DNA from: Candidatus Spongiisociaceae bacterium
GTDB lineage: Bacteria > Actinomycetota > Acidimicrobiia > Spongiisociales > Spongiisociaceae
Assembly (NCBI GenBank): GCA_965219685.1
Contig: CBDCOH010000002.1
Location: forward strand, 4,256,001-4,320,000
DNA: 64,000 bases
Reading direction: 5' to 3'
Shown here: in pieces, positions 30,334 to 58,461 of the stretch
How the letters are laid out: each line of letters opens with the position of its first letter
Numbering within the stretch: the first letter of the stretch is position 1
The notes under the pieces: model-generated
Told to the model about the DNA's origin: nothing
Database searches by the model: none
Seen by the model: only the letters and a program-made list of their open reading frames with translations
Translations under genes and position numbers: made by a program

Positions 30334-30364
30334 GCTAATCAGCTATTACCTACTAGCAACTAGC
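30334..30364. repeat. Degenerate heptamer run at the 3' end of the cupin gene
   Basis: GCTAATC AGCTATT ACCTACT AGCAACT. Confidence 0.45.
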
Positions 30365-30758
30365 AAAACTCTGCTTCGATCACTTCTCGTTCGGCGCCCG
30401 ACGGGCTATACATCCAGAACAGCCTGACCGGGGTATCGCCGGTATTGAAGAACTGGTGGCTCACCCCCGGGGGGGTGTAGACGACCGATCCGGGGCCGGT
30501 GACGATCTCCAGATCGCCTACGACCGCCCTCCCCTCGCCCTCGGAGAACATCCATATCTCGGCGGCGTCCGGATGGGTGTGGAGGCTGCCCTTCTGGTGG
30601 GGCGGCACCTCGCACGACCCGACCGCGAAGTCACCGATCCCTTCCTGCAGGAACGGTGACAGGAGGACCTTCACATGGCGGACGTACGGCTCGGGGGTGG
30701 TCAGCCCGATCCCGTCGGCATCGGTGACGACGATCGGTGTTTCCGATGAGTTGCTCAT
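30360..30758 (-). CDS. Cupin domain protein
   Basis: HTHPDAAE...GEG, PPGVSHQFFN; GGAGG RBS. Confidence 0.9.
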   Translation of the reverse strand: MSNSSETPIVVTDADGIGLTTPEPYVRHVKVLLSPFLQEGIGDFAVGSCEVPPHQKGSLHTHPDAAEIWMFSEGEGRAVVGDLEIVTGPGSVVYTPPGVSHQFFNTGDTPVRLFWMYSPSGAEREVIEAEFC

Positions 30759-30833
30759 TGCTCAACCTCCTCCGCCGACTTAGCGTCCCGAACCGGTGGG
30801 ATCATCCGCCCCGCCGGGATACCGCCGGTACCT

Positions 30834-32201
30834 CTACTCATTCGACTCATCCGCTACCAAGTCGTCCCAACGAGGGCCGACCTCCAGTATGGAGGAGCGT
30901 AGAGCGGAGACACCGCGTTCCAGATCGTCGACACCGATCGTGAGGGCCGGGTTGACGCTGACCACATCCCCCACCAGGGCGCTTCCGTGGTGCATCGCCC
31001 GGGACAGGAAACCCCGTCGCCACATCGCTTCGGGAACCACTGAGCCGACAGCGGCCTCGGGCGGCAGCGGAGTTCGTGAGGCCTTGTCCGCGACCAGTTC
31101 GATCCCCCGGCAGAGGCCGCGCCCGCGCACGTCCCCCACCCAGGGGAGGTCGGCTATCTGCTCGGCCAGGAGGGCCGACAGCATCTCATCCAACTTTGCA
31201 GACTGCTCCGCCAGGCCCTCCTCCTCGATCGCGTCGAGGACCGCCAGCCCCACCGCGCACGACTGCGCGCTGCCGCTGTAGGTGTGGACCTCCGCCATGC
31301 GCCGGTTCTCGGCGGCGATGGTACCGGCGACGGCTCCGGTGATCAGCGTGGCCCCCAACGGCGCGTAACCCGCTCCCAGCCCCTTGGCCATGGTCGTGAT
31401 GTCGGCCACCACGTCCGCGTGGTCGAGGGCCAGGAAACGACCGGTCCGCCACATGCCGGTGATCACCTCGTCGGCTATGAACAGCACACCGTGGTGGTCA
31501 CAGACCTCCCGGACGCGACGCCAGTACTGGTCGGGGGGCACCGCCATCCCGGTGGAGAGAGCGATCGGCTCGGCGATGAAGGCGGAGACCGAGTGCGCCC
31601 CTTCGCTCTCGATGGCGGCGTCCAGCGCCCCCGCCGCCCGCCTCACCACCTCCTCCGGCGCAAGCCCCGCGTACGGACCCCGGTACGTGATCGGGGCAGG
31701 GACCTTTGGGGTCCGGAACACGTACGGTTGGTAGCTCCGGTTGATGTCCCAGCGCCCGGTCATCGACAGTGCCCCGGCGGTGGCGCCGTGGTAGCTGGGA
31801 GAGAGACCGACCACCTTCCACCGGGCGGGCTCCCCCCGGGCCAGGTGGTACTGGCGGGCGATGCGGAGGGCTATCTCGTTGGCCTCGCTGCCCCCCGAGC
31901 TGAACATGACCCGGTCGACCCCGTCAGGCGCCAGGTCGACCAGCCGGCGGGCGAGTTGCTCCTGAGCGCGGGTAGTGCCGGCCACCGTGTGCATGTACGA
32001 AAGGCGCCGGACCTGCTCCACCATGGCCCGGGCGATGTCATCCCGTCCCTGGCCGATGATCGCCGCGCCCGAAACGCCGCTGGTGAGATCCACCAACTCG
32101 TGGCCGGCGTCGTCCCACAGCCGGCAGCCCTCGGCCCGCACGAACAGGGGGTACTCGTCGCCGGGGCTCCGGTAGAAGACCGCCGACGGGAACCTATCCA
32201 T
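30834..32201 (-). CDS. Class III PLP aminotransferase
   Basis: GGSEANE, SYHG, FIADEVITG, AKGLG, HTYSG. Confidence 0.92.
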   Translation of the reverse strand: MDRFPSAVFYRSPGDEYPLFVRAEGCRLWDDAGHELVDLTSGVSGAAIIGQGRDDIARAMVEQVRRLSYMHTVAGTTRAQEQLARRLVDLAPDGVDRVMFSSGGSEANEIALRIARQYHLARGEPARWKVVGLSPSYHGATAGALSMTGRWDINRSYQPYVFRTPKVPAPITYRGPYAGLAPEEVVRRAAGALDAAIESEGAHSVSAFIAEPIALSTGMAVPPDQYWRRVREVCDHHGVLFIADEVITGMWRTGRFLALDHADVVADITTMAKGLGAGYAPLGATLITGAVAGTIAAENRRMAEVHTYSGSAQSCAVGLAVLDAIEEEGLAEQSAKLDEMLSALLAEQIADLPWVGDVRGRGLCRGIELVADKASRTPLPPEAAVGSVVPEAMWRRGFLSRAMHHGSALVGDVVSVNPALTIGVDDLERGVSALRSSILEVGPRWDDLVADESNE

Positions 32202-32548: not shown

Positions 32549-33922
32549 ATGGACGCACTTAGGGGTCGGCTATCCCCCACCGCCATTCTGGCGATGGCAG
32601 CCGCGGCCGTCTTCCTGACCGTAGCCAAGACTTCCGCGGCGGCCGTCTCCCAACCCGCTATCGCACACGCCTTCGACGCCGGTCCGGCCGATGTCGGGTG
32701 GGTCGTCTTCGGCTTCTCGGGTACGTTCGCCGTCGCCACTGCCGTCTACGGGCCGCTCGCGGTACGTTTCGGGGTGGGGAGAACCCTTGCGTTCGGAATC
32801 CTGCTCCTTGCGTTCGGATCTCTCATCGCGCTCGTAGCTCCGACGCTGCAGATCGTGATCGCCGCCCGGATGATCCAAGGAGCCGGTTCGGGTGCCTTAC
32901 CGACCCTCTTCCTGGCAATCCTCGCCACGAGGTTTCCCCCGGAGCGGCGGCCCTTCGCCTACGCGGTCATCACCGCCATGCTGGGAATTGCCCAGACGCT
33001 CGGTCCCATCATCGGCGGCCTGCTGGTCGAATTCGTCAGCTGGCGAGCCGCCCTGGCCATCGGGCTGCTCATCTCACCCGCAGCAGCCTTCGTCTGGTAC
33101 GACCTCCCGGAGCCGGGGGACCCGAGCCGGCGGCTCGACTATGCCGGAGCGGCATCCGCAGTCCTCGTGATCGGAAGCTTCGTCTACATTCTGAACCGGC
33201 TCCCCGTCGACGGCGCCACGCTCCTCACGGGGAGCGCCATCCTGGCCGCCGCCGTGGGATCGTTGTTCTCCACGATCTGGGCGAATCGTCACCCGGCGCC
33301 GTTCATCCCGTGCTCGATGGTGCTCGACCGCAGCTACATCGTGCTCGTGACTGCCGGCTTCGTGGGGACCGCCTGCTACCTGGGGACGATCATGGCCCTG
33401 CCGTCCGCACTGGCGAGAGTCCACACGATCGATGCGGTCGGGATCGGACTCGTCATTGTTCCGACCGGCGTTTCGGTAGCGCTCGGGTCAGCAGCGACCG
33501 GCGTCGTGATACGCCGGTTGGGAGATACCGGCGCCGCAATACTGTCACTGCTGTTCCTGTCAGCCGGAACCGGACTGTTCGCCGTGCTCGGCGTGGACAG
33601 GAGCCTCGTCTCGGTGGCCCTGGCCGGGATCCCCATGGGCATGGGGTTGGGACTTCTGAACCCTCCGCTGGTGAACGCCGTGACGCAGCGCTTCGTGGGG
33701 CCCTCCCAGCCGATCGCAATCGGCATCTTCTACCTGGGGTTCTTCTTCGGCGGCGCCGCGGGCGGCGCGGTGACGACCGCGATAGTCCAACGCGACCTGT
33801 CGGTCCCGCTGCTCGGTACAGGGTTTCCGGTAGGCGAGGCAGGGCTGGCTCTCCTGGCTCTCGCCGGAGCCGTCATCATGGCTAGGTCGCTCAACAACAA
33901 CTACGCCACCATCCGCGCGTGA
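32549..33922 (+). CDS. MFS transporter (DHA2-like), paralogue of 55892-57265
   Basis: ARMIQGAG, GPIIGGLL, LDYAG; many TM segments. Confidence 0.88.
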   Translation: MDALRGRLSPTAILAMAAAAVFLTVAKTSAAAVSQPAIAHAFDAGPADVGWVVFGFSGTFAVATAVYGPLAVRFGVGRTLAFGILLLAFGSLIALVAPTLQIVIAARMIQGAGSGALPTLFLAILATRFPPERRPFAYAVITAMLGIAQTLGPIIGGLLVEFVSWRAALAIGLLISPAAAFVWYDLPEPGDPSRRLDYAGAASAVLVIGSFVYILNRLPVDGATLLTGSAILAAAVGSLFSTIWANRHPAPFIPCSMVLDRSYIVLVTAGFVGTACYLGTIMALPSALARVHTIDAVGIGLVIVPTGVSVALGSAATGVVIRRLGDTGAAILSLLFLSAGTGLFAVLGVDRSLVSVALAGIPMGMGLGLLNPPLVNAVTQRFVGPSQPIAIGIFYLGFFFGGAAGGAVTTAIVQRDLSVPLLGTGFPVGEAGLALLALAGAVIMARSLNNNYATIRA

Positions 33923-34025: not shown

Positions 34026-35258
34026 TCAGGAATGGTCTGAGTGCCGGATGCGTCGCGCCAGGTACACGGCTCCGAGCAGGACGGGTATCGCCATGACCAG
34101 CGCTGCCGCTCTCACGTTCACGAGGGTGGCTACCGAGCCGTCGATCAGGCTTGCCACCGGCCGGAGGCCCAGGAAGGCCACGCCCCATAGAGCCATCACC
34201 CGGCCGCGATGCTCCTCAGCGACGTTCATCTGTACCAGGGTGGTGGACAGGGTCACCGAGATGATGTACATGATCCCGCCGACGAACAATGCGGCGAGAC
34301 CCATGTTCGGGTGGGTGGACAACCCGAAGAGCGCAATCGCCGTACCTAGGCCGGCCATACCGATTGCGATGCTCCGGAAGGAGGCTCTCACCTTCGTCAC
34401 CGCTAGGGCGGCGGTAAGCGCCGCTCCCAGCCCGAACGCACCGATGAGCACACCCGTGAAGGTGTCCGGCCTCCCGTATATCTCCACGGTGAACGCCGGC
34501 GTCAGATTGCTTACGGGGTCCACCGCGACCGAAACGGCAGCAACCGCGATCAGCAGCGGACCGAGCAGCGGATCCTTGCGGACGACGGTGATCGTCTCCC
34601 GCAGCTTGGCGCGTTCCGCGGGCCGGTCACCCTGGCGCCGCTCGATCCTGAGGATCATCACCGCCCCGGCCAGGGCCAGGTAGGAAAGGGCGTTGATCGA
34701 AAAGGCCCATGTGAACCCGAGGGTAAGGATGATCCCTGCACCCACGACCGGTCCGATCGCCCTGGCAAGGTTGAAGCTGATCGAGCTCAGAGCTACCGCG
34801 GCTTGCAGATCCTTCCGCTCCACGAGGTGCGGAACCAGGGCCTGCTGCGCCGGGAGCAGGAATGCCTTCGTGACGCTGAAGAGCAGGGCAGCCCCTATCA
34901 GCCACATGGGGGTGACCAGCCCGAGATAGTTGACAAGGGCAAGCACCCCGCCTGCTAGTGCAGCCGCCACTTGAGTGACGAAGATCAGCGTGCGCCGATC
35001 GAAGCGGTCGGCCACCGGGCCGGTCCAGGGAGCGAGCACGATCAAGCCCAGGAACTGGGAGAAGGTGGTCATCGCCACCAGGAAGGTCGACCCCGTTAGC
35101 CGGAAGATGAGCAGTGCCAGAGCGATGTTCTGGACCCACGTGCCCATGTTTGATGCCAGGTTTCCGAAGAAGTATGGCCCGAAGTTCCTTCGGAGCAGCA
35201 GGCTCAGAGGCGGGCTGGGCGTGATGTCCGGTTGGGTGGTGTCGATGTCTGAGTCCAT
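34026..35258 (-). CDS. MFS transporter (DUF894-like)
   Basis: SNMGTWVQ, GPVADRFDRR, FNLARAIGP, RGRVMAL. Confidence 0.88.
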   Translation of the reverse strand: MDSDIDTTQPDITPSPPLSLLLRRNFGPYFFGNLASNMGTWVQNIALALLIFRLTGSTFLVAMTTFSQFLGLIVLAPWTGPVADRFDRRTLIFVTQVAAALAGGVLALVNYLGLVTPMWLIGAALLFSVTKAFLLPAQQALVPHLVERKDLQAAVALSSISFNLARAIGPVVGAGIILTLGFTWAFSINALSYLALAGAVMILRIERRQGDRPAERAKLRETITVVRKDPLLGPLLIAVAAVSVAVDPVSNLTPAFTVEIYGRPDTFTGVLIGAFGLGAALTAALAVTKVRASFRSIAIGMAGLGTAIALFGLSTHPNMGLAALFVGGIMYIISVTLSTTLVQMNVAEEHRGRVMALWGVAFLGLRPVASLIDGSVATLVNVRAAALVMAIPVLLGAVYLARRIRHSDHS

Positions 35259-35335: not shown

Positions 35336-36328
35336 TCAGTTCGCCAGACCCAGTTCTCGCAACCGGGGCAGGACTTGATCACCGAGCAACTCGATCGACT
35401 CGAACCACCGGTCGAACCGGAGACGCAGATCGAACACCAGGTGTTCCACTTCGACCTCGGCGAACTTGGTCACCTCCTGCACGACCTCTTCGGGCGACCC
35501 GGCGATGAGGGACCCCTGGATGTCCTCGGCTGTCCTGAAGACGCCGGAAGGAGGCTTCACCCACCACTTGCCCCGTTCGTTCGCCCAGCGGAGCAGCCCG
35601 TCGATGTTGAGGCCGTCGAACGCCTCCTCATGGGTCTTGGCGATCGAGGTGGGGGGGATCACGGCAACCGTGGGGCGGGAGCGGCCTGCCTCGGCGGCCA
35701 TCCTGTCCATCGCCTCCACCCGCTTGGCGATAGTGGCCAGGGTGGTCCTTCCCGGCATCCAGCCGTCGCAGTAGCGCACCGCCCGCCGCGCCGAGGCGGG
35801 GGTCGATCCGCAGTACCAGAAGGGGACATGGCCGGACGGCTTCGGCTCGATCGAGATCTCCTTGAGCTCGTAGTGGGCGTCCCGGTAGTCGACCCGGTCC
35901 TCGGTGAACAGACGCTTGAGGATGTTGGCGTTCGACTCGACCAGTTCGGGACGGAAGATGCCTGGCATACCGATCGCCTCGAATTCGTGATCGAAGGTGC
36001 CGGCGCCGTAACCGATGATGATCCGGTCACCGACCAGTTGGGCGAGTGACCCGACCGACAGGGCGGTGTGGATCGGATGGCGGAAGGGGATCAGGGATCC
36101 CGTTCCGAGCGTGATCCGGTCGGTCACCGCACCGACCGCGGTGAGGGTGGTCAGGGCTTCGTAGAACACGATGTTCGGGTTCTCGAGTTCCTCATGGGGC
36201 TCGAAGACCAAATGGTCTCGTACCCAGAGAGAGTCGAAACCCAACTCTTCGGCGAGCCGGGAACCGACGAGTATCCGCTCGCGGTTGGCGTACGCGCCGA
36301 AGTGGGGTAGGAGCAGGCCGAATTGCAT
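35336..36328 (-). CDS. LLM-class flavin/F420-dependent oxidoreductase (paralogue 1)
   Basis: FGLLLPHFG, AEELGFDSLWVRDH, DGWMPG, GSPEEV. Confidence 0.88.
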   Translation of the reverse strand: MQFGLLLPHFGAYANRERILVGSRLAEELGFDSLWVRDHLVFEPHEELENPNIVFYEALTTLTAVGAVTDRITLGTGSLIPFRHPIHTALSVGSLAQLVGDRIIIGYGAGTFDHEFEAIGMPGIFRPELVESNANILKRLFTEDRVDYRDAHYELKEISIEPKPSGHVPFWYCGSTPASARRAVRYCDGWMPGRTTLATIAKRVEAMDRMAAEAGRSRPTVAVIPPTSIAKTHEEAFDGLNIDGLLRWANERGKWWVKPPSGVFRTAEDIQGSLIAGSPEEVVQEVTKFAEVEVEHLVFDLRLRFDRWFESIELLGDQVLPRLRELGLAN

Positions 36329-36347: not shown

Positions 36348-37721
36348 CTAATTGCCGGGCTTCGCGTGACGGCCGTATCCGGGTTCCCCCTTGACGGTCC
36401 CGTCACCGTATACCTCGTTACCCCTCAGGAAAGTGCGTTCGACGGCCCCGACAACCCGACGCCCGTCATATGCGGTCCATCCGATCTTGGACAGCACGTC
36501 CTCGTTGCGGATGGTCCACTCCTTGGCGGGGTCGACGATCAGCAGATCGGCGTCGAAGCCCGGCCGAAGGTATCCCTTGGAACCGATGTCGAAGGACCGG
36601 GCGGGTGCTTCGGCTATCAACTCGACCACCCGTTCGACGGTGAGCTTGCCCTGGTTGGCGGCATCGAGCAGCAGCGGCACCTGGTGCTGGACTCCGGGAG
36701 TGCCGGTATGGGCGGCCCACATGTCCTCCCAGCCCACATCTTTCTCCGCCCGGGTATGGGGCGCGTGATCGGAGGAGACCATGTCTATGGTTCCATCGTT
36801 CAAGGCCTCCCAGATGGCGGCGCGGTGGTGGTCGGGCACCCAGTAGGACAGGCAGTAGGGCCCGAGTTCGAGCACGTCCTCCCACGTGCTGAGGAACAGG
36901 GCCCAGTGGTTGACCTCGCCCGTGACCGGGATGCCCTCGTCCTTGGCCCGGCGGATCATCTCTATCCCCTCGGTGGTCTGGACGTGGACGATGTGGAGGC
37001 GGCAGCCGGTGGCCTTCGCCATCCGCAGCAGGGTGGCGGTGGCGGTGTCCCAGATGATGCCGTCGTAGGCGGCCAGGGTCTTGGCGTATGCTTCCGGGCT
37101 GCGGTCCCCCCTCTTCCAGTAGCCCTGCTCGACGTGGTCCATCAGGGCTTGGTCGTGCGGGTGGACCATGAACACGCGGCCCGTTTCCTTTACGTCCTCG
37201 AACATCTGCAGCAGGTGGCCGTGGTCGTGGATACCCGTGCCCGCCGGATGGGGATAGGTGCGGCCGGTGTCCACCACCATATACACCTTGAAGGCGGCCA
37301 CTCCGGCCTCGGCCATGGCATCGGTCTCGCCATGGGTGGGTACCGGGTTGTGGTTGTAGTCGACGATGCTCTTGGCTTTGTAGAGGTCCAGGACTTCGTC
37401 TAGGTAGGTCCTGGTCACGGTGGGGGGATCGAGGTTGGGCATCCCGAAGATCGTGGTTACGCCGCCTGCCGCCGCAGCTTCGGTGCAAGTGATCAGGTCT
37501 TCCTTGTGGGTATAGCCTGGTTCGCGGGTGTGAACGTGAACATCCACCATGCCGGGCAGAACCAGTTTGCCGGTGGCGTCCACCACCCGGTCCGCCTCCG
37601 CGCCGGTACCGCTACCAGCGGCGACCTCGACTATCCGCCCGCCGGAGACGAGGATGTCCGCCCGCCGCCGACCCGAACCGGACACGAGAGTTCCTCCGAC
37701 TACGGCCAGATCGTAGGTCAT
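36348..37721 (-). CDS. Cyclic amidohydrolase (dihydroorotase/allantoinase family)
   Basis: PGMVDVHVH, AAAGGVTT, FKVYM, HIVH, SDHAPH, GFDADL. Confidence 0.9.
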   Translation of the reverse strand: MTYDLAVVGGTLVSGSGRRRADILVSGGRIVEVAAGSGTGAEADRVVDATGKLVLPGMVDVHVHTREPGYTHKEDLITCTEAAAAGGVTTIFGMPNLDPPTVTRTYLDEVLDLYKAKSIVDYNHNPVPTHGETDAMAEAGVAAFKVYMVVDTGRTYPHPAGTGIHDHGHLLQMFEDVKETGRVFMVHPHDQALMDHVEQGYWKRGDRSPEAYAKTLAAYDGIIWDTATATLLRMAKATGCRLHIVHVQTTEGIEMIRRAKDEGIPVTGEVNHWALFLSTWEDVLELGPYCLSYWVPDHHRAAIWEALNDGTIDMVSSDHAPHTRAEKDVGWEDMWAAHTGTPGVQHQVPLLLDAANQGKLTVERVVELIAEAPARSFDIGSKGYLRPGFDADLLIVDPAKEWTIRNEDVLSKIGWTAYDGRRVVGAVERTFLRGNEVYGDGTVKGEPGYGRHAKPGN

Positions 37722-38644
37722 GATGTCGCTCCAGGGTCATGGTTGATCGTTACTGGTTCTCTTCGCAGGTGCGTGCTGAACCAGTCGGTGATCTGGGGGA
37801 TCACCGTGTCCGCGTGCTGCGCGTAGGCGCCGTAGTGGGTGGTGTGGCGCTGCATGAGCAGCTTCTTGGGAGGGCGCGCGCGCTCGTACAGGGCCACCGC
37901 ATGGTCGGTGGGGGTAACAGGGTCGTCCTCAACCCCGATGATAAGGAGGGGGGCATCGTCGATCCTGCTGACCGCTTCGATCGGCTTGTACGCGAGTATC
38001 CCGTCCACGCTCCTTAGCTGCACCCGGGTGGGCACGCGGGAGTCCACGTCCTTCTTCACCTTCGTAGCCCTGCGCTCGGGTGTCTGCAGCATGATGTCCT
38101 CGCGAGGATGGACGAGCGCACTCTTCCCCGTCAGGACCCGGTTCGTACGGTCGGCATGGAGGGACTCCAGCAGTTCGTACCATTCGTACTCGCGGCGCAT
38201 CCGCCGCAACCAGTCCTCCCCGTCGGCCACCGGCACCTGCGAGACGGCGCAGCGGATGCGGGAGTCAGCTGCGGCCAGCATTATGGCGTTCCCGCCGCCG
38301 GTTCCTCCGCTCCCGAAAGTGCCGATGCTGTCCTGGTCGACATCCGGCCGTGACGCCATGTAGGTCACCGCGTTGATCAGGTCCTCCAGCTGGCGGGAGG
38401 GCAGCAGGAGATCGCTCGCTCCCTCCGAGGATCCGAAGCCGCGGTAGTCAAAGATGAGCACCGCGATGCCGGCATCGGTGAGGGCTTCGTGGTAGGGGAG
38501 GTAGAGCCGAGCGTCCTTGAGGCCCAGCCAGCCGGGTCCCTGGACCACCGCTGCGTAGGGACCGTCGCCTGTCCGGTCGGGGAGCCGGAGGAGTGCCGAG
38601 ACGCGCTCCCCTTCCGAATAGAACGAAACATCCTCGGCCCTCAC
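37718..38644 (-). CDS. Alpha/beta hydrolase fold protein with atypical nucleophile elbow
   Basis: FDYRGFGSSEG, GTFGSGGTGGG, EDDPVTP, THY. Confidence 0.85.
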   Translation of the reverse strand: MRAEDVSFYSEGERVSALLRLPDRTGDGPYAAVVQGPGWLGLKDARLYLPYHEALTDAGIAVLIFDYRGFGSSEGASDLLLPSRQLEDLINAVTYMASRPDVDQDSIGTFGSGGTGGGNAIMLAAADSRIRCAVSQVPVADGEDWLRRMRREYEWYELLESLHADRTNRVLTGKSALVHPREDIMLQTPERRATKVKKDVDSRVPTRVQLRSVDGILAYKPIEAVSRIDDAPLLIIGVEDDPVTPTDHAVALYERARPPKKLLMQRHTTHYGAYAQHADTVIPQITDWFSTHLRREPVTINHDPGATS

Positions 38645-38764
38645 CGTCTACCCTTCGCCGCCGCTCACACCGGGGGAGTATAGATAGCCCGATATACGGT
38701 ATACAGGTGCCGGATGTGACGTGCCAGGTTTCCGTAGAAGCCACTATCTGCTGTCCACCATCCG

Positions 38765-40033: not shown

Positions 40034-40170
40034 AGTCGGGGTCTCTCTTCTATCTCGTAATGCTCGGGTTACGCAGGCAACGCGGTGGGCCTGCCGCCCG
40101 GTCGACTAACAAGGCTCGACCGGGTGGAGCGGCTGCATCCCGGTCGTCTGAACCTTCTCAAGCAGGGACT

Positions 40171-40572: not shown

Positions 40573-40666
40573 CGTTTCTCCTCCCGCCGTCCGCCACTCC
40601 GGAGCTCTGCTAGCGGCCTATCCGGCCGGTGGATCGTGCCCGCCCCGCATCGGATACTCTAACCGG

Positions 40667-41533: not shown

Positions 41534-41535
41534 TC

Positions 41536-47408: not shown

Positions 47409-47414
47409 GGGCTG

Positions 47415-47426
47415 ATCGTATACGAT
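47415..47426. promoter_or_regulatory. Palindrome ATCGTATACGAT = back-to-back TACGAT -10 elements (bidirectional promoter)
   Basis: Lies between the divergent nitrilase-like and LLM genes. Confidence 0.55.
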
Positions 47427-47453
47427 GCCTGTACGGATGGACACCCGGCCGCG

Positions 47454-50810: not shown

Positions 50811-50985
50811 GTAGGGCGAGGCCAGGACCCCCGAGGGATCGTCAGCTCAACGATCCTTCCGGGGGTTCCGGCGCTAGGGTTCTCGGAGGGTGCTGGACAC
50901 CCGCCGTCGGGCCACAGAAACGCGGGCGAGGGGCGGATGCCCGACCTCTTCCAGCCGCAATGATCGCACGGGGAGAAAACCGGAG

Positions 50986-51831
50986 ATGGCAGCAGTAGAG
51001 ACGCTGGGCGCCCAGGAGCGCGGTTTCACCTCCCTGGCCTCCAGAGTCGCCGGCCCCTTGATGCGTGCGCTGGAGGTCTTCCAGTCGAGTTGGACGATCC
51101 GGGTGCTCACGCTGGCAGTCATCCTCACCGGATGGGAAGTCTTCGGACGGCGTACCAGCACCGTCACGTTCGCGTCGGCAACCAGGACGCGTGACGCCCT
51201 CTGGGAGATGACCGTCAGCGGCGACTTGTGGAAGGCCTGGCGAGCTGACCTGGCCATCATGTTCACTGCCCTGGCAATCTCGGCAGTGGCCGGTATCCTG
51301 CTCGGCTTCCTGCTGGGACGCTACCGCTCGATAGACACGACTGTGGAACCGGTCTTCGTGGGTGTGTTCATGACGCCCAAGATCGCCCTGCTCCCGATCA
51401 TCGCCCTGTGGCTCGGTTACCAGTTCAATGCCAAGGTGCTCGTCGTGGTCCTGTTCAGCTTCTTCGAGGTCTTCTTCACCGTTCGTGACGGGATCAAGGT
51501 GACCAACGCCGAGTACGTGGACGTTGCGAGGTCCTACTCCATTCCCGAAGGCATGATCCTCACCAAGATCGTCGCGCCGGCCACCGCTCCCTACATCATC
51601 ACAGGGCTCCGGCTCGGCCTCCTCCACGGAATGGTCGGAGTGGTGCTGGCCGGATTCTTCCTCGAGGCGAACGGTATCGGCGGCCTCATCAGCAACCAGA
51701 CCAACGAGTTCCGGATGCATACGACTTTCGCCGCGATGCTGACCGTCATGGCGGTTGGAGTCGCCATCAACCTGAGCCTGCGCCTGCTGGAGCGCTGGGT
51801 GACACCTTGGAGTATCAAGGAGACGACATGA
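50986..51831 (+). CDS. ABC permease (SsuC/TauC-like)
   Basis: TPKIALLP, EAA-like VDVARSY, PYIITGLRLG. Confidence 0.9.
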   Translation: MAAVETLGAQERGFTSLASRVAGPLMRALEVFQSSWTIRVLTLAVILTGWEVFGRRTSTVTFASATRTRDALWEMTVSGDLWKAWRADLAIMFTALAISAVAGILLGFLLGRYRSIDTTVEPVFVGVFMTPKIALLPIIALWLGYQFNAKVLVVVLFSFFEVFFTVRDGIKVTNAEYVDVARSYSIPEGMILTKIVAPATAPYIITGLRLGLLHGMVGVVLAGFFLEANGIGGLISNQTNEFRMHTTFAAMLTVMAVGVAINLSLRLLERWVTPWSIKETT

Positions 51832-52841
51832 CCGCCCAACGTTCGCCGGAGGAATCGGGCTCGCTCCCAGGCGGAGAATCGCGGCGCCCGTTCCGGCTGA
51901 GCCGTGTGAGGGTTCTGCAGTTGAGCGGCATCGTGGTGTTCCTGGCGTTCTGGCAGGTGTTCGGAGGTCGCAAGCCTGAGTGGTATTCCCAGCCCACCAG
52001 GACGCTGACCGAGCTCTGGTATCTGCTCGGGGCCGAAGAGGTACTCCCTTACATCGAGGGGAGCTTCTGGGAGCTATTCCTCAAGTCCTTGGGAGCGCTG
52101 TTGGTGGGCATCGTGCTCTCGTTCATCGTCGGGGTGACCCTCGGCTTTCTCATCGGCCGTTACCGCGTATTCCGGGTCGCGCTCGATCCCTACCTGGCGG
52201 CTGTCTACTCGGTGCCCCGGGTGGCGTTCGTGCCGATCATGGTGGTCTGGTTCGGTATCGCGGACAGCTTTCTGGCGGTGGGGGTCGAGGTCCCCCTTTC
52301 CAGGTTCGTGATAGCCAGCGTTGTGGTGGCTTGCTCGGTCCTGATCGCATTCTCCACCGCGGCGGGAGTGCACGAGCTCATGAAGGAGTACAACGAGGTG
52401 GCCTACGCCTTCAACCTCCGGGGCGGCAAGGGGGTAGTCGAGGAATGGGTGGGAGCAATCCTGCTCATCGTCGCCTTTCTTGCCACCGCAGCCGGATGGC
52501 TCAGCCTGATACAGGGTCTGGCGCTGGTGTTCGCCACGGTCGGTCTCCTGGTAGTCCGCGACCGGCACATGTTCTGGAAGATCCTCCTACCCGGAGCCGT
52601 ACCGTTCCTGGCGACCGGTCTGCGCATCGCGGTTCAGCGCGCCCTCATCGCGGTGATAGTGGCCGAGTTCCTGATCGGTGTGCCCGGACTCGGGTTCGTG
52701 ATACGCGACGCCCGCGCCGCTTACCACACCGACCGGCTCTTCGCCATGGCCCTACTCCTGATGGTGCTGGGCGGGACCATCGTCACCATCACGAAGGCAG
52801 TGGAGTCCCGGTTGTCCTCCTGGCGGCCCAGAGCATTCTGA
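51828..52841 (+). CDS. ABC permease (SsuC/TauC-like) with insertion
   Basis: VPRVAFVP, LPGAVPFLATGLR, IVAEF...GLG. Confidence 0.88.
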   Translation: MTAQRSPEESGSLPGGESRRPFRLSRVRVLQLSGIVVFLAFWQVFGGRKPEWYSQPTRTLTELWYLLGAEEVLPYIEGSFWELFLKSLGALLVGIVLSFIVGVTLGFLIGRYRVFRVALDPYLAAVYSVPRVAFVPIMVVWFGIADSFLAVGVEVPLSRFVIASVVVACSVLIAFSTAAGVHELMKEYNEVAYAFNLRGGKGVVEEWVGAILLIVAFLATAAGWLSLIQGLALVFATVGLLVVRDRHMFWKILLPGAVPFLATGLRIAVQRALIAVIVAEFLIGVPGLGFVIRDARAAYHTDRLFAMALLLMVLGGTIVTITKAVESRLSSWRPRAF

Positions 52842-53001: not shown

Positions 53002-54003
53002 ATGACCTTCGGGGTGCTGCTCCCGCACTTCGGTCCGCACGCCTCCCGGTCCCGCCTGATCGAAGGCGTCAAGCTCATCGAAGATTTGGGATTCGACGCG
53101 GTGTGGGCCCGCGATCACCTTCTCTGGCACCCGCACAGCCACGAGGAGCACACCGACATGACCTTCCTCGAACCCTTCACGACGCTGGTCGGGCTGGGAA
53201 CCCTGGTGGAACGGTTGGTCATCGGGACCGGCGTGATGATCCCGGTGCGCCACCCGATCCGGGTCGCCCAGCAGTACATGACCCTCTCCTATCTCACCGG
53301 CGGACGGGTCATTGCCGGCTTCGGGGCCGGTCACGGGGGTGAGTTGCGGGCCGCGGGGATCGACCCCGACCGGAAACACCAGGCCGTGCTGGAGATGATC
53401 GAGATCGTTCGCCGGCTGTGGGTAGAGAACGGGGTCACTTTCGAGGGGGAGATCTTCAGGGTTCACCACGCTTCGCTCGAGCCCAAGCTCGAGCATCCGC
53501 TGCCAATCCTCTATGGGGGCCCCTCGCGGCGGGCAGCGCGGATAGCCGCCTGCCATGCGGACGGCTGGCTGGCCGGCACCGTCCCGCTCACCACGGTCGA
53601 CGCCCGGCTCTCCTACATGCGGGAACTTCTGGGCAGCATCGACCATCTATTTCTGTCGGTCACGCCCCGCACGATTCTCGACGAGGACCGGGATCTGGCC
53701 CGCAGCCGGGTGGACGTGGAGCGGATGTCGAGAGACGGCAAGCGAAACTGGGTGACCCCACCGCGGGGCGCCTTCCGGACCCTCGAGGACATCCGGGGCG
53801 TGGTGGTGGTTGGCGACGCCCATGACGTGGCGGCCGGCGTCCTCGAGTACTACAACCGTGGGTTCGACCACTTCACGTTCGACGTGCGCAACCAGTTCGA
53901 TCGCTTCGAGGAGACCCTCGAGGCGGTCAGCGGGTCAGTGCTGCCGATCGTTCGGGCGCAGATCGCCCGGGCGGACATGCCTCAAGCAGACAGGAGGAAA
54001 TAG
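53002..54003 (+). CDS. LLM-class oxidoreductase (paralogue 3)
   Basis: FGVLLPHFG, EDLGFDAVWARDHL, DGWLAG. Confidence 0.88.
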   Translation: MTFGVLLPHFGPHASRSRLIEGVKLIEDLGFDAVWARDHLLWHPHSHEEHTDMTFLEPFTTLVGLGTLVERLVIGTGVMIPVRHPIRVAQQYMTLSYLTGGRVIAGFGAGHGGELRAAGIDPDRKHQAVLEMIEIVRRLWVENGVTFEGEIFRVHHASLEPKLEHPLPILYGGPSRRAARIAACHADGWLAGTVPLTTVDARLSYMRELLGSIDHLFLSVTPRTILDEDRDLARSRVDVERMSRDGKRNWVTPPRGAFRTLEDIRGVVVVGDAHDVAAGVLEYYNRGFDHFTFDVRNQFDRFEETLEAVSGSVLPIVRAQIARADMPQADRRK

Positions 54004-54006
54004 ACG

Positions 54007-54579
54007 ATGGGGATCGTCGATCACGGCAAGCTGAAGTCCAACTACCTGGGTGTGGTGGAGAAGTTGGCCGGCAACCACGCGGCCGGCCTTGTCCATCCCT
54101 ACGTGTCGGCCGTGACCATCGAGGACGTGAGCGTCCGATCGTCCTTCATCCAGTACGACCGGGAGTTCACCTTCTTCGGGGATGAGGCCTTCGAGCGGGG
54201 CGGGCACGAGCGAGGCCCGAGCCCCATCCGGTACTTCCTCAGCGGGATCGCCTTCTGCATGCTCGGCTGGTACGCCAAGGGCGCCGCATTCGCGGATTGC
54301 GAGGTCGAGGGTATGCGTATGAACATCACCACCCACCTCGACCTGCGCGGTGAGCACGGCTTCGAGGACAAGCCGATCCACATCCAGTGGCTGGTGTTCG
54401 ACGTCCACGTGGACAGTCCTTCCTCCGCCGAATCCGTGCTGGCCATGATCGACTGGGGCGACGCCCGGTGCCCGCTCGGCGCCTTCTCCCGGCGGGCGGT
54501 ACCCGTGTACACGGTCGTGCACCACAACGGAGCCACCATCCGGGATACGGTCCCGCGGGGGCATCGCAGCCAGGACTAG
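54007..54579 (+). CDS. OsmC/Ohr-like protein
   Basis: AGGAGG RBS; DE..GG..GPSP...FC and RCP, both Cys retained. Confidence 0.82.
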   Translation: MGIVDHGKLKSNYLGVVEKLAGNHAAGLVHPYVSAVTIEDVSVRSSFIQYDREFTFFGDEAFERGGHERGPSPIRYFLSGIAFCMLGWYAKGAAFADCEVEGMRMNITTHLDLRGEHGFEDKPIHIQWLVFDVHVDSPSSAESVLAMIDWGDARCPLGAFSRRAVPVYTVVHHNGATIRDTVPRGHRSQD

Positions 54580-54843: not shown

Positions 54844-55662
54844 TCAGTTCTCGACCTTTTGGCCCGGGAGCAGCTTGTTCCAGATGTCGTAGCGCATGTC
54901 GGCGAACACCGGGTCGCGCTTGAGATCTCCCTCGGTCCGCGGGTAAGCGAACGGTACGTCTATGACTTCGTTGACCGTGCCGGGGTGCGCAGACATGATG
55001 GCGATCCTCCGGGATAGGAAGAGGGCCTCGTCGACGCTGTGGGTGACGAACACGACCGTCTTGCGGGTCTTCTCCCAGATCCTGAGTAACTCGATCTGCA
55101 TGAGCTCGCGTGTCTGGGCGTCCAGCGCCCCGAACGGCTCGTCCATCAACAGGATCTCGGGGTCCACGGCGAGCGCTCTCGCTATGCCGACCCGCTGCTG
55201 CATCCCTCCTGACAGCTCATGGGGATGGAGGCTCGCGAAGCTCTCCAATCCCACCATCCGTATGTACGTCCAGGCGATCTCCTCGCGCTCCGCCCTCGAC
55301 TTGCCCGCGGCCTCGAGGGGGAGGGTCACGTTGCCCATGACCGTCCGCCAGGGGAACAACCCGAATTGTTGGAACACGAAGGACCGGTCACGGCCGGGAC
55401 CGGTCACCGGTCTACCCGAAACCCTCACCTCGCCGACATCGTAGGGAACCAAGCCGTCCAGCACCTTCAGGAGGGTGGTCTTGCCGCAGCCGCTCGGACC
55501 GATCAGGCTGACGAACTCTCCGTCGGCCACGGTCAGGCTGGCGTCCCGCAGCGCCTGAACGGTCCCATGCTGCCTTCCCCGTCTGCCGAAGCGCGTGGAG
55601 GTCGTGCTGGCCTTCCGGTAGTACTTGTCGACGTGCTCGATCTCGATCTTCGGCCTGGCCAC
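54844..55662 (-). CDS. ABC ATP-binding protein (SsuB/TauB-like)
   Basis: GPSGCGKT, LSGGMQQR, MDEPFGALD, VTH. Confidence 0.94.
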   Translation of the reverse strand: MARPKIEIEHVDKYYRKASTTSTRFGRRGRQHGTVQALRDASLTVADGEFVSLIGPSGCGKTTLLKVLDGLVPYDVGEVRVSGRPVTGPGRDRSFVFQQFGLFPWRTVMGNVTLPLEAAGKSRAEREEIAWTYIRMVGLESFASLHPHELSGGMQQRVGIARALAVDPEILLMDEPFGALDAQTRELMQIELLRIWEKTRKTVVFVTHSVDEALFLSRRIAIMSAHPGTVNEVIDVPFAYPRTEGDLKRDPVFADMRYDIWNKLLPGQKVEN

Positions 55663-55750: not shown

Positions 55751-55891
55751 GACTAGCGGAGGCACGGACCCTGCTCGTAAGAAACCACGATTCCGGTGGG
55801 CACTCCCGCTCATTCCCGCCCACCGTACCCGACGCGGGGACTCCTGATCACGCGTCCGGTCCATCCGCACGGCCCCCGCAGGACCGGCTGC

Positions 55892-57265
55892 GTGGACACC
55901 GATAGAGGTCGGCTGTCCGCGACCGCCGTCCTGGCCATGGTGGCCGCGGCCGTGTTCCTGACCGTGGCCAACACCTCGGCATCGGCGGTCTCCCAACCCG
56001 CCATAGCTCAGACCTTCGGAGCGGGCCCGGCGGATGTCGGTTGGGTCGTCTTCGGTTACTCAGGTACCTTCGCCGTATCCACCGCCCTGTACGGGAGGCT
56101 TGCCGCCCGTTTCGGAGTGGGGAGAACCCTCTCGTTCGGGATCCTGCTGCTCGCGTCCGGTTCCCTGGTCGCGGTCGTGGCGCCGACCTTGCCGCTGGTG
56201 ATCGCAGCCCGGGTGATCCAGGGAGCGGGTTCCGGGGCCATCCCGACCCTCTCGGTAGCCATCCTCGCCACCAGGTTCCCGCCGGAACGGCGCCAGTTCG
56301 CCTACGGGATCGTCACCGCGGTCGTGGGCATCGCCCAGGCGCTGGGACCGATGATCGGTGGCCTGCTCGTGGACCTCATCAGTTGGCGGGCGGCGGTGGC
56401 AATCGGGATGCTGATCTCACCCGTTGCTGCGTTCATATGGTACGACCTGCCCCAGCGAGGGGACCCTACCCGCCGCCTGGACTACGCGGGTGCCGGCTCG
56501 GTCATGCTCATGATCGGCGGCTTCGTCTACGCCATCAACCGGTTCCCGGTAGACGGCGCCACGCTGCTGACCGGGGGCGCAGTGCTGATCGCCGTTCTGG
56601 GCAGCGTGCTCACCGCCTCTCGGGCGAAGCGCCACCCGGCACCGTTCATCCCCCTCTCGGTCGTGTGCGACCGGGGGTTTCTTCCCCTGGCAATCGCCGC
56701 CTTCGTGGGCAGTGCTTCCTACCTGGGTACGATCGTTGCGCTGCCGTCCGCCCTGTCCCGGGTCTACGAGATAGACGCGGTGGGGATCGGCCTGGTCATC
56801 GTTCCCGCCGCGGCCTCGGTCGCCGTCGCATCCACAGCGACCAGCCATGCAGTACGCCGCCTGGGCCATGCGGCTACGACGCTGGTTTCGCTGCTGTTCC
56901 TGATGGCCGGAGCGGGGTTGCTGGCCGCACTGGGGATCGAGCGCGGCCTGGGTTCGGTGGCCCTCATGGGGATACCGCTGGGTATCGGATTCGGACTGCT
57001 GACTCCCCCGCTGGTGGACGCGGTGACGAAACGCTTCGAAGGTCCGTCCCAGTCGATCGCCATCGGGATCTTCTACCTCGGATTCTTCCTGGGTGGATCA
57101 TCGGGTGGAGCGGTCACGACCGGGATCGTCCAACGCGACCTGTCCCTCCCCCTGCTGGGTTCGGGGTTTCCGGTCGGCGAAGCCGGGCTGGCTGCCTTGG
57201 CCTTGGCAGGCGTCATCATGATGGCGCGTCTGCTCAACCCGGATCCCCAACAGGGTGGAAGCTGA
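55892..57265 (+). CDS. MFS transporter (DHA2-like), paralogue of 32549-33922
   Basis: Colinear high similarity (GPADVGWVVFG, RFPPERR, GFPVGEAGLA). Confidence 0.88.
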   Translation: MDTDRGRLSATAVLAMVAAAVFLTVANTSASAVSQPAIAQTFGAGPADVGWVVFGYSGTFAVSTALYGRLAARFGVGRTLSFGILLLASGSLVAVVAPTLPLVIAARVIQGAGSGAIPTLSVAILATRFPPERRQFAYGIVTAVVGIAQALGPMIGGLLVDLISWRAAVAIGMLISPVAAFIWYDLPQRGDPTRRLDYAGAGSVMLMIGGFVYAINRFPVDGATLLTGGAVLIAVLGSVLTASRAKRHPAPFIPLSVVCDRGFLPLAIAAFVGSASYLGTIVALPSALSRVYEIDAVGIGLVIVPAAASVAVASTATSHAVRRLGHAATTLVSLLFLMAGAGLLAALGIERGLGSVALMGIPLGIGFGLLTPPLVDAVTKRFEGPSQSIAIGIFYLGFFLGGSSGGAVTTGIVQRDLSLPLLGSGFPVGEAGLAALALAGVIMMARLLNPDPQQGGS

Positions 57266-57384
57266 CCAGTGTCCCTCGGAGGCCGCTGTCAAGGAGTGGG
57301 ATCGCAGAGCGGTATCCTCGAGTACCGTGACCCGCCGAGACCACCGGACTCGAGGCAGATGAGCCAACTCGCGCAGGGAAACCC

Positions 57385-58461
57385 TTGAGCACCCCCAATA
57401 CCATGCGGGCGATGGCCCTGGCGAGAGTCGGAGGTCCCCAGCACATCGTCGCGACGAACCTGCCCGTACCGGAACCGGCAGACGACGACGTGCTGATCCG
57501 GGTCAGGACGGTGGCAGTCAACCACCAGGACCTCTTCACCATGTCGGGCCGGGCCCACAAGGCCAACCTCTCCTTTCCCCATGTCATGGGGATCGACCCG
57601 TCGGGAGTGGTGGCCGGATACGGATCCCGGGTCACCTCCCTGGGGATCGGGCAACGGGTGGTCGTCAAACCCCCCATAGCCTGCGACGCTTGCGACTTCT
57701 GCGCCCGGGGCGAGGACGACTCCTGCCCCTCCCTCCACAACGTGGGAGTGCACCGCTGGGGCGGCCACGCCGAATACGTCACGGTGCCCGAACGCAGCGT
57801 GTTCCCCATCGCGGGCGGCGTGGCCCACACCAATGCGACCGCGCTGGCCCACTCGTTTCCCGTCGCCGAGCAGATGTTCACGCGGGTGGGGCTCACTGCG
57901 GACGACGTGGTGCTGGTAGGGGGGGCGTCCGGCGCTATCGGCTCCGCCGCCGTCCAACTCGCCAAGCTCGCCGGGGCGTTCGTGATCGGTGCAGCCGGCT
58001 CGCCCGATCGGACCGCACGAGCGGCCATGGCAGGCGCGGACGCGACCATCGACTACACCGCTGAACCCGAGTTCTCGGCCCGGATTCGCGGGATCGCCCC
58101 CGAGGGGGTCACCGTCTTCCTCGACCCCGCCAGCAACCCCCGCGTGTGGGACGAGGTGCTCAAGACGCTACGGAGCCGCGCCCGGGTGGTGGTCTGCGGG
58201 TCGCATGCCGGCCCGATGGTCCGACTCAACAACAACTGGTTGTTCCGGTCGAGGGTGGCCATCTATGGAAGTGCGGGATCCACTCGTCGGGGGATGCAGC
58301 GGTGCCTCGATCTGGCGGCAGCAGGCCGGATCGCCCCGGCGATCGACTCGGTCCGGCCGCTCAGCAGCATCCGGGAGGCGTACGCCGACCTGGGTTCGAG
58401 GCGCAACGTAGGCAAGATCGTCCTAACCGTATCGGACGGGGACGTGCAACAACGCGGCTGA
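57385..58461 (+). CDS. Zn-binding MDR oxidoreductase
   Basis: VNHQD, CDACDFC...C, GASGAIG, GKIVL; catalytic Zn ligands absent (reductase-like). Confidence 0.88.
   Translation: MSTPNTMRAMALARVGGPQHIVATNLPVPEPADDDVLIRVRTVAVNHQDLFTMSGRAHKANLSFPHVMGIDPSGVVAGYGSRVTSLGIGQRVVVKPPIACDACDFCARGEDDSCPSLHNVGVHRWGGHAEYVTVPERSVFPIAGGVAHTNATALAHSFPVAEQMFTRVGLTADDVVLVGGASGAIGSAAVQLAKLAGAFVIGAAGSPDRTARAAMAGADATIDYTAEPEFSARIRGIAPEGVTVFLDPASNPRVWDEVLKTLRSRARVVVCGSHAGPMVRLNNNWLFRSRVAIYGSAGSTRRGMQRCLDLAAAGRIAPAIDSVRPLSSIREAYADLGSRRNVGKIVLTVSDGDVQQRG

Follow-up and report, generated by a model that had tools for sequence, protein, structure and literature searches.

We analyzed a stretch of 64,000 nucleotides from the genome of Candidatus Spongiisociaceae bacterium (GCA_965219685.1; contig CBDCOH010000002.1, positions 4,256,001 to 4,320,000), hereafter the window, and within it a cluster of 23 genes at positions 30360-58461 that appears to be common to this uncultured actinobacterium and to distant soil bacteria, and to import and dismantle a nitrogen-rich ring compound. 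Reading frames were chosen by codon-position GC, with gene starts refined afterwards, and gene families were assigned by Pfam and NCBIfam profile searches using the curated NCBIfam cut-offs. The source genome is denoted G000, those of its relatives G001 and upward, and fetched loci carry L-numbers. Every family listed in a first-pass annotation, made from the sequence alone, was found in this region, together with one further family, DoxX, and the genes are arranged in at least six transcription blocks.

At the left edge, on the minus strand, are a monocupin of 132 residues (30360-30758; Pfam Cupin_2, 8e-17) and a class III (omega) aminotransferase (30834-32201; Aminotran_3, 2.6e-77), followed on the plus strand by the first of three major facilitator superfamily (MFS) transporters, a DHA2-like protein (32549-33922; MFS_1, 2e-44). 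The conserved block has as its left end the second MFS gene, coding for an EntS-like MFS_3 protein (34026-35258; 1.8e-49), which lies on the minus strand with five others: LLM1, the first of three luciferase-like oxidoreductases (LLMs), of the F420 type (35336-36328; Bac_luciferase, 1.3e-45), with its start ATG at 36328 preceded by GGAAGGGGA; a cyclic amidohydrolase resembling hydantoinase, dihydropyrimidinase and dihydroorotase (36348-37721), the candidate ring opener; an alpha/beta hydrolase with GSGGTGGG in place of GxSxG (37718-38644); an M20 metallohydrolase resembling NaaA (38765-40033); and the small membrane protein DoxX (40171-40572; 2.4e-17). This block diverges from the plus-strand genes for a molybdenum (Mo) hydroxylase, with its FAD (40667-41533), 2Fe-2S (41536-42021) and large, Mo-cofactor (MoCo) subunits (MoL; 42018-44426).

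Next on the minus strand are an amidase-signature amidase similar to GatA and AtzE (44776-46236; Pfam Amidase, 1e-115) and a CN_hydrolase protein of the nitrilase superfamily that lacks the catalytic cysteine and has a C-terminal tail (46233-47444), the stop of the latter overlapping the start of the former by 4 bases. This pair diverges from the plus-strand importer operon, which opens with LLM2 (47454-48422) and continues with a substrate-binding lipoprotein of the NMT1/SsuA type (48660-50810; NMT1, 1.8e-21), two ABC permeases (50890-51831 and 51828-52841; BPD_transp_1), the F420-type LLM3 (53002-54003) and an OsmC-like protein (54007-54579; OsmC, 2.2e-7). An ABC ATPase of the NitT/TauT type (54844-55662, minus strand; ABC_tran, 1.2e-30), the third MFS transporter, also DHA2-like (55796-57265, plus strand), and a medium-chain (Zn) dehydrogenase/reductase (MDR; 57385-58461, plus strand; ADH_N and ADH_zinc_N) complete the region, with the MDR gene as the right end of the conserved block.

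Conservation in relatives and across phyla

Three markers, the nitrilase homologue, the M20 protein and LLM3, were searched for in 40 relatives, one of which, the unpublished G028, enters each count solely as a genome without a match. Seven genomes (G001, G002, G003, G005, G006, G021 and G023) hold all three, at 74-83%, 90-95% and 84-90% identity, respectively; they comprise five of the seven genomes of the window's genus and two of the eight of a second genus and, kin not being independent, amount to two or a few events. The other 33 lack the markers at that level of identity, G004 having only an M20 remnant (G004:C1:1060200-1060967; the C-terminal 256 residues, 91% identity, with an in-frame TAA) that appears to be what remains of a decaying cluster.

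In G001, G021, G023, G005 and G006 a single 40-kb stretch holds the whole block from MFS_3 to OsmC in the window's order, with MFS_3 orthologues (79-87%) adjoining LLM1 in each. Orthologues of the third MFS transporter (76-87%) are present in G001, G002, G003 and G023, and those of MDR (82-86%) in G001, G002 and G023. The first-pass annotation had drawn the cluster somewhat more widely at its left edge. The cupin has no tblastn match in the relatives' 40-kb stretches, and the first MFS transporter, a paralogue of the third, has no counterpart of its own beside the cluster, matching only the third-MFS position (67-72%); the membership of both is thus not borne out. The aminotransferase falls between, with an 83% orthologue adjoining MFS_3 in G001 and G002 but not in the other three of the five relatives with a visible flank.

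The operon junctions of the cluster appear to be hot spots for selfish elements, as inserts of AAA_14/DUF4143, TnpB and toxin-antitoxin genes are found at two of them in relatives; TnpB/IS605-type and AAA_14-DUF4143 inserts lie at L016:253-1569 (G021), L011:15990-17141 (G001) and L019:15414-16678 (G005). A junction inside the G023 cluster holds a permease of the xanthine/uracil family (Xan_ur), which, like the position of the M20 gene beside Mo hydroxylases, hints at a heterocycle as substrate.

Pfam confirms the three LLMs that had been listed for the cluster, and they are denser than chance would give (36 LLM hits in the 4.42-Mb genome; three in 28.1 kb, Poisson P = 0.0017). One Mo hydroxylase per 28 kb is unremarkable (P = 0.17), with 30 hits genome-wide to MoCoBD_1, the large-subunit family. 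Since the genome is crowded with Mo hydroxylases and LLMs, conservation is a stronger argument than density.

M20 homologues at E ≤ 1e-30 number 268, and 80 loci anchored on M20 homologues were compared with the window proteins. Eight of these, at 90-95% identity, repeat the window's arrangement; homologues at 35-50% lie in other neighborhoods (an Opp transporter, Amidohydro_3, polysaccharide deacetylase). Four loci from Limnocylindrales (Chloroflexota) have OsmC (52-59%) directly upstream of M20 (62-67%), an ABC ATPase (67-71%) and, nearby, MDR (37-40%, beside OsmC-M20), MFS, a GntR regulator and a Mo hydroxylase, with the third MFS transporter at 39-43% in L038 and L040. Locus L039, from Dormibacteria, carries, in this order, the FAD and FeS subunits of a Mo hydroxylase, a triple RidA, DoxX, M20, a Mo large subunit and Amidohydro_2, and M20 adjoins Mo hydroxylases in Dormibacteria, Clostridia and other Acidimicrobiia loci. 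DoxX adjoins M20 and Mo hydroxylase in all eight close loci and in L039, and MoL in the Limnocylindrales locus L119; its place beside a Mo hydroxylase in three phyla suggests that it may act as a membrane electron outlet, or quinone-side partner, of that enzyme.

Contig C5 of genome G041 (L119 and L040) holds, within about 30 kb, homologues (36-67%) of about 15 of the 23 window proteins: the three Mo hydroxylase subunits (41-45%), the second and first permeases (36% and 54%), the binding protein (53%), LLM2 (55%), the nitrilase homologue (49%), the amidase (54%), the third MFS transporter (39%), MDR (40%), OsmC (55%), M20 (62%), the ATPase (67%) and LLM3 (49%). DoxX, a bicupin and an alpha/beta hydrolase correspond there at the level of Pfam family only. 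The upstream part of this contig reads isochorismatase, Mo hydroxylase, short-chain dehydrogenase/reductase, DoxX, bicupin, second permease, first permease, binding protein and LLM2; the Cys-less nitrilase homologue, amidase and a Cys-bearing paralogue diverge; and farther along are a second NMT1-type protein, a fused MoCo/FeS protein, MFS, GntR, MDR, OsmC, M20, alpha/beta hydrolase, ATPase and LLM3. A divergent core, with amidase and Cys-less nitrilase homologue on one side and LLM, binding protein, two permeases and LLM on the other, is common to the window and Limnocylindrales and occurs again in L120 and L121. MFS_3 and the aminotransferase were not found in the Limnocylindrales stretches examined.

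Sixteen metagenome loci were anchored on the Cys-less clade. Where a flank is visible, a divergent LLM2 lies upstream in ten of eleven (L149 being the miss) and the amidase downstream in eleven of eleven; a Cys-bearing paralogue comes next in six, and the longer loci also encode a bicupin, a creatinase-like M24 protein and a Mo hydroxylase. This paralogue (42-48%) follows the Cys-less homologue and amidase in L140, L142-L144, L147, L148 and L119, and is often succeeded by NMT1_2 and an M24 creatinase-like protein. The bicupin replaces the monocupin in the Limnocylindrales and metagenome clusters. Records from Gemmatimonadota and Solirubrobacterales also appear among the listed homologues. The co-occurrence elsewhere on which the first-pass annotation depended is therefore seen in the gene-neighborhood comparison, as shared order in relatives and as a shared toolkit across phyla.

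That annotation had also called the region an island, which base composition does not support: GC is 0.63-0.70 both inside and outside the cluster, and throughout the window except at 58-62 kb (0.56). The low-GC segment corresponds to an insertion (58500-62600) that separates the MDR gene from the Mo hydroxylase paralogue following it. The insertion carries a pentapeptide-repeat NTPase of 785 residues (58970-61327, minus strand) together with an IS3-type element marked by an ALIL frameshift pseudoknot (61696-61811), the sole match in an Rfam scan of the window; G001 lacks the insertion and has a 35% MoL paralogue directly after MDR. On the other side, a MazF/PemK-type toxin gene (29829-30197), with a small frame upstream of it in which one reference contains a stop codon, abuts the left edge of the cluster, and beyond it is a corrinoid-dependent methyltransferase set (24410-29431) of a URO-D/MtaA-like protein, a B12-binding protein, a RACo reductive activator and a pterin-binding methyltransferase. 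These corrinoid genes were considered as part of the cluster and rejected, having no matches beside it in relatives. The window also contains an S41 peptidase with PDZ and S-layer-homology domains (8630-10954) and, at its end, a MoCoBD_2 fragment (63626-64000); no tRNA genes were found in it. No RNA datasets are listed that cover 36348-46236, and sequencing runs containing 0.05-0.10 of the sequence words, some of them labelled as sponge, marine or coral metagenomes, are no evidence of expression or habitat.

The amidase and the Cys-less nitrilase homologue

The amidase has the Ser-cisSer-Lys triad and the GGSS(G/A)GS motif of amidase-signature enzymes (consensus GGSSGGSAAAV), with K81, S156/S157 and S180 invariant in 10 aligned sequences; its NCBIfam scores for GatA (317 bits) and the AtzE family (289 bits) are both under cut-off. 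Its neighbor had been described as a Cys-less nitrilase, and rightly so. Glycine stands at the cysteine position (VLAGGENSNPL, aligned to ALCCAEH in 6zby and NCWEH in 8uxu) and the other two catalytic residues are kept, Glu in AFGEN and Lys in RRKL, so that of the Glu-Lys-Cys set of the superfamily only the nucleophilic Cys (CWE/CGE motif) is missing. Among 120 listed homologues (43-89% identity) the position reads Gly-Gly in 100 and Ala-Gly in five, each of these 105 being at least 49% identical; Cys is retained in 16, the farthest of the set (43-48%). Among the best 150 matches in a library clustered at 50%, the Gly/Ala motif occurs in the three nearest representatives, full-length or partial, and in a few more, a loose-pattern count giving Cys in 83, Gly in six, Ala in two and no match in 59. 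Judged by these alignments and by the neighborhoods above, the protein belongs to a compact clade with Cys replaced by Gly or Ala, always beside an amidase. An ESM Atlas search with it returned generic CN_hydrolase clusters only, and the open-access literature searched for nitrilase-superfamily pseudoenzymes listed no such clade.

Members of the clade share a conserved C-terminal extension. A complex prediction for the nitrilase homologue and the amidase scored 0.79, against 0.18 for the best of three controls, which supports binding. The mark that it passed is one to which 116 of 157 solved complexes come up, but only 2 of 215 mismatched pairs; these counts apply only roughly here, since we supplied our own alignments. 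The runs agree in at least 65% of contacts, with partner pLDDT of at least 81, and the confidently predicted interface is between tail residues 350-388 and amidase residues 310-361 and 408-410. In G003, G005 and G006 the tail is in a different frame from the nitrilase core, which would fit an independent module. From the motif counts and the prediction, the Cys-less protein probably serves the amidase as a non-catalytic partner and does not carry out a pathway step itself.

Amidases of the GatA and AtzE families need small partners, GatC and AtzG, and the predicted binding of a short helical tail by the amidase resembles those pairs. It differs from them in that the tail is fused to a Cys-less protein of nitrilase fold and that its similarity to GatC is weak: aligned to the genome's own GatC it is in register, with an hhalign P of 0.006 and a probability of 5.9%. 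A second comparison is with the heteromeric NIT4 nitrilases of plants, in which an inactive isoform reportedly supports an active one. Most loci outside the window's lineage are like these in bearing the Cys-bearing paralogue downstream of the Cys-less homologue and amidase, but the source genome has no Cys-bearing nitrilase paralogue above 35% identity.

Enzymes, transporters and known pathways

The NCBIfam matches listed for the 23 proteins all fall short of their curated cut-offs, and none of the proteins is therefore an equivalog of a named enzyme. The M20 protein had been termed NaaA-like, a likeness that holds at the level of family: the nearest solved relative is 5-nitroanthranilate aminohydrolase NaaA (5k8p; E = 1.2e-52, 182.7 bits, residues 16-421). 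Conserved H86, D88, E155, E157, H219 and H345 are compatible with a metal site, and no AllC/carbamoylase-type model matches among the NCBIfam results. NaaA (5k8m-5k8p) sets an example of an M20 enzyme that hydrolytically removes an amino group from a ring, but with a family-level relation and varied homologue neighborhoods its reaction is not transferable.

The cyclic amidohydrolase is closest among solved structures to L-hydantoinase (1gkr; 8.4e-62), with which it aligns at six metal-ligand positions (vdvHvH, fKvy, mvHp, ivHv, sDH); in 1gkr we take the binuclear metal ligands to be HxH, a carboxylated Lys, His, His and Asp. Its scores are 308 bits for dihydroorotase, 286.4 for allantoinase (TIGR03178; cut-off 357.85), 278.1 for pyrC_multi (279.05), 256.4 for dihydropyrimidinase (TIGR02033; 393.25) and 242.8 for ErtD (NF058539; 650). 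The alpha/beta hydrolase had been noted as atypical, and indeed lacks the GxSxG nucleophile elbow: the Thr of GSGGTGGG aligns with the nucleophile Ser of 7qjm (GISLGG), and the GGTGG motif is kept in 13 of 13 close homologues, down to 54% identity; a 59% homologue is present in metagenome locus L147. The aminotransferase scores at best 365 bits against a cut-off of 485. The OsmC-like protein (NF041052, 76.8 bits against 95) has two cysteines (AFCML and ARCPL) and a position beside LLM3 or M20, which suggests that it may handle a reactive intermediate.

For all three LLMs the top NCBIfam family is TIGR03619, the F420 Rv2161c family, with LLM1 at 155.9, LLM3 at 130.0 and LLM2 at 115.5 bits, all under the cut-off of 166.9. 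F420 enzymes lead the solved relatives of LLM1, and the best for LLM3 is F420-dependent hydroxymycolate dehydrogenase (3.6e-21), RutA structures following at 5e-7. In these profile and structure rankings all three resemble F420-type oxidoreductases more than FMN monooxygenases. Of the cofactor genes, cofH is over cut-off in the genome and cofD scores 250.3 bits against 257.45; the LLMs probably, though not certainly, depend on F420.

The large subunit of the Mo hydroxylase has CoxL (8uem), quinoline 2-oxidoreductase (1t3q) and the ketone dehydrogenase 7dqx (6-hydroxypseudooxynicotine dehydrogenase) as its best solved relatives (1e-130 to 1e-122). Aerobic CO dehydrogenase was considered and rejected for both CoxL forms I and II: the subunit lacks the AYR of the active-site loop, which we take to be AYRCSFR or AYRGAGR, and scores 473.7 against 991 bits for TIGR02416 and 682 against 950 for NF040766. 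It also falls well short of the XdhA and PucD large-subunit equivalogs (NF043082, 369 against 780; TIGR03196, 307 against 784). The substrate is unknown for more than half of CoxL-type proteins according to a symbiont-genome survey (PMC8941161).

The signal sequence of the binding protein ends in LLAAAC, after the ATG at 48660, and the protein is an internal tandem duplication whose halves are 92% identical (96% between the DNA repeats at 48824-49123 and 49832-50131). The halves are more alike within genomes (97% in G002, 98% in G005, 94% in G023) than between them (85-94%), a pattern that suggests gene conversion; G001, G021 and G003 have a single copy, which could reflect repeat collapse in short-read assemblies. 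Its only solved relative is SsuA (3.8e-4), and it scores 78.5 bits for the SsuA family against a cut-off of 163.5. The permeases score about 69 bits for SsuC/TauC, and the ATPase 246.9 for TauB against 357.

We compared the cluster with described routes, and none of the 23 proteins maps at equivalog level to rut, pyd, puc or nic, as the first-pass annotation had judged, or to hyu. There is a likeness on paper to the Rut pathway for uracil, with an LLM for RutA, an amidohydrolase for RutB, OsmC against RutC as handler of peroxy or reactive intermediates, an alpha/beta hydrolase for RutD, MDR against RutE as reductase and a transporter for RutG; unlike Rut, the window has no isochorismatase-type RutB, the cluster has no flavin reductase (the nearest being megabases away), and LLM1 and LLM2 score 30.3 and 29.0 bits for RutA (TIGR03612) against 498.3. 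Anaerobic nicotinate fermentation in Eubacterium barkeri and the reductive pyrimidine route of PydA/B/C hydroxylate or reduce the ring and then hydrolyze it, and the order of events would be similar here: a Mo hydroxylase or reductase primes the ring, an enzyme of cyclic-amidohydrolase fold opens it, and hydrolysis of amide or carbamoyl groups and transamination follow. The differences are that the candidate reductases are F420-type LLMs rather than ferredoxin or NAD(P)H enzymes, that no protein qualifies as a dihydropyrimidinase, nic or pyd equivalog, and that OsmC, the NaaA-like M20, the Cys-less nitrilase homologue with its amidase, and a TauT-type importer are extra.

The oxidative pyrimidine pathway needs an AtzD-type barbiturase and was rejected, that family being absent from the 23 genes (Pfam). 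The lumichrome (lum) operon of Nocardioides simplex is likewise actinobacterial and combines hydrolytic pyrimidine-ring opening, ureido and amidine hydrolases and a xanthine-oxidase-type hydroxylase with a P450, a thiamin-dependent decarboxylase, a Rieske dioxygenase and an extradiol dioxygenase (PMC12746152); as none of these last four families is among the 23 genes, we rejected it also. These profile, motif and family comparisons set the cluster apart from rut, pyd, puc/all, hyu, ssu/tau, aerobic CO dehydrogenase and lum, and we found no description of this gene set in the open-access literature searched.

A proposed route and its rivals

The enzyme families present fit hydroxylation, redox, ring opening and C-N hydrolysis. 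Apart from the small cupin, no aromatic ring-cleaving dioxygenase family is found among the 23 genes (Pfam), and the conserved catalysts are all Mo hydroxylases, LLMs or C-N hydrolases, which fits a logic of hydroxylation, reduction or activation, and hydrolysis and does not fit oxygenolytic routes; pyrimidine, purine and anaerobic nicotinate breakdown follow the same logic. The reading that we favor, at a probability of about 0.55, is that the region forms a single conserved catabolic locus of several operons, which acts on a nitrogen-rich ring compound (an N-heterocycle or cyclic amide/ureide) and encodes an undescribed, importer-fed hydroxylate-reduce-hydrolyze route; pyrimidine- or orotate-, purine-, hydantoin- and pyridine-like substrates would all fit.

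In such a route the compound would be taken up by the NitT/TauT-type ABC importer with its NMT1-like lipoprotein, and the three-subunit Mo hydroxylase would introduce a hydroxyl (oxo) function at a position adjoining a ring nitrogen, with electrons perhaps passing to the membrane via DoxX. The F420-type LLMs would then reduce or otherwise activate the ring and the hydantoinase-like enzyme would open it hydrolytically, after which the NaaA-like M20 protein, the alpha/beta hydrolase and the amidase, the last held by the C-terminal tail of the Cys-less nitrilase homologue, would strip amino, carbamoyl or amide nitrogen. A last task, the handling of reactive or carbonyl products, may fall to OsmC, the MDR reductase and, in certain genomes, the class III aminotransferase.

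Several observations weigh against this reading. The M20 family is not tied to the toolkit, as 45 of the 80 M20 loci hold no other cluster gene; the Limnocylindrales stretches examined contain neither LLM1 nor the cyclic amidohydrolase; and the two halves of the cluster are about 34 kb apart in G002 and, in the assembly, on two contigs in G003. With 30 Mo hydroxylases and 36 LLMs in the genome, some of the adjacency could reflect gene density. No genome match to F420:NADPH oxidoreductase (Fno) exceeds the cut-off (best 22 bits), the best match to the Fgd model is 181 bits against 420, and all three MFS transporters are of efflux-type families (DHA2, EntS-like). The 75-residue tail matches no Pfam or NCBIfam family at E up to 10, and because the amidase resembles GatA and AtzE, themselves enzymes with small partners, its docking result may mirror a likeness to solved complexes of that kind, which we take to be GatCAB and AtzEG. 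As to the ligand, there is no clue from a regulator, none being found inside the 23-gene region (Pfam), or from a riboswitch, none being found in the window (Rfam, gathering thresholds); the full route for an amino-substituted heterocycle proposed in the first-pass annotation is a conjecture.

The separation of the halves speaks for a rival reading, a mosaic of two unrelated units, one of hydantoinase, LLM1, hydrolase, M20 and Mo hydroxylase and the other of importer, two LLMs, OsmC, amidase and nitrilase homologue, each with a substrate of its own. Besides the spacing in G002 and the absences in Limnocylindrales, it accounts for variable inserts between the halves in relatives and for G008, where LLM1 (63%), the cyclic amidohydrolase (60%) and the hydrolase (54%) keep company with a CoA-transferase, Amidohydro_2 and dienelactone hydrolase. 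We nevertheless think it unlikely, at perhaps one chance in a handful, since markers of both halves occur in the same seven of 40 relatives and not, at that identity, in the other 33, since M20, from the first half, lies between OsmC and the ABC ATPase, from the second, in all four Limnocylindrales loci, and since the G041 contig carries both sets. A nucleobase or ureide route peculiar to the lineage, of the reductive pyrimidine/orotate or purine-to-allantoin type and with non-orthologous stand-ins, is a further candidate; in its pyrimidine form an F420-type LLM would replace dihydropyrimidine dehydrogenase, with dihydropyrimidinase/dihydroorotase-like opening, decarbamoylation by M20 and transamination of a beta-amino acid. 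The dihydroorotase, allantoinase, dihydropyrimidinase and pyrC_multi scores of the cyclic amidohydrolase, its adjacency to and co-conservation with LLM1 (also in L079 and G008), the aminotransferase and MDR, and the Xan_ur permease of G023 are in keeping with this; a canonical ureide route is also not evident elsewhere in the genome (96.7% complete), which has no HIU hydrolase (PF00576) and no urease alpha match. The allantoinase, dihydropyrimidinase, XdhA/PucD and RutA scores are, however, all under cut-off, the M20 protein matches no AllC/carbamoylase-type model, the beta-ureidopropionase-type fold here is without its Cys, the aminotransferase is beside the cluster in only two of five visible flanks, and the ring-opening enzyme is outside the core conserved across phyla, so that we consider both forms together to be rather improbable.

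Organosulfur scavenging by the importer half, in the manner of ssu, tau or sfn and with the LLMs releasing sulfite from a sulfonate or sulfone, is suggested by the taurine, sulfonate and nitrate models that best match the transporter, by SsuA as sole solved relative of the binding protein and by weak LLM matches to SfnG and SsuD. All of these matches are far under their cut-offs (for the LLMs, 36-48 bits against 510-518 for the SsuD models and 41-61 against 383 for SfnG), F420-type families and structures rank first for the LLMs, and among the conserved partners one finds C-N hydrolases (amidase, nitrilase homologues, M20, M24) and Mo hydroxylases rather than enzymes of sulfur metabolism; we hold this explanation to be very improbable. 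Slighter still is the chance of a non-catabolic role in tailoring, export or detoxification of a secondary metabolite or toxic host compound. It would suit the efflux-type MFS transporters, and aminotransferases, LLMs and hydrolases are also known from biosynthetic clusters, but the 23 genes include no core family for nonribosomal peptides, polyketides, terpenes or ribosomally made, modified peptides, a binding-protein-dependent importer is within the conserved core, and Mo hydroxylases are catabolic as a rule.

Returning to the single catabolic locus, what is new lies within a familiar kind, the nitrogen-ring catabolic cluster: its spread over uncultured lineages, the F420 type of its LLMs and an amidase that probably has a pseudoenzyme as partner. 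A bolder version, which we offer tentatively and would not bet on, is of a widespread, unrecognized system in uncultured Acidimicrobiia, Limnocylindria and their neighbors that degrades a common nitrogen heterocycle, probably a nucleobase-like one, through F420-linked LLMs in place of the known flavin or NAD(P)H enzymes, and in which the amidase has a dead nitrilase-fold partner with a role of the GatC/AtzG type exercised by its fused tail.

The carriers are mostly uncultured lineages with many Mo hydroxylases and LLMs that lack assigned substrates, and for these a toolkit kept across two phyla is a defined, testable unit with a putative function in nitrogen recycling. If the proposed partnership is true, the Cys-less nitrilase homologue and its amidase would be a case of a pseudoenzyme partner in a superfamily defined by its cysteine, and might explain how an amidase of the GatA/AtzE type is stabilized without a separate small subunit; if the LLMs are F420-dependent, the catabolic roles of F420 would extend to ring nitrogen compounds.

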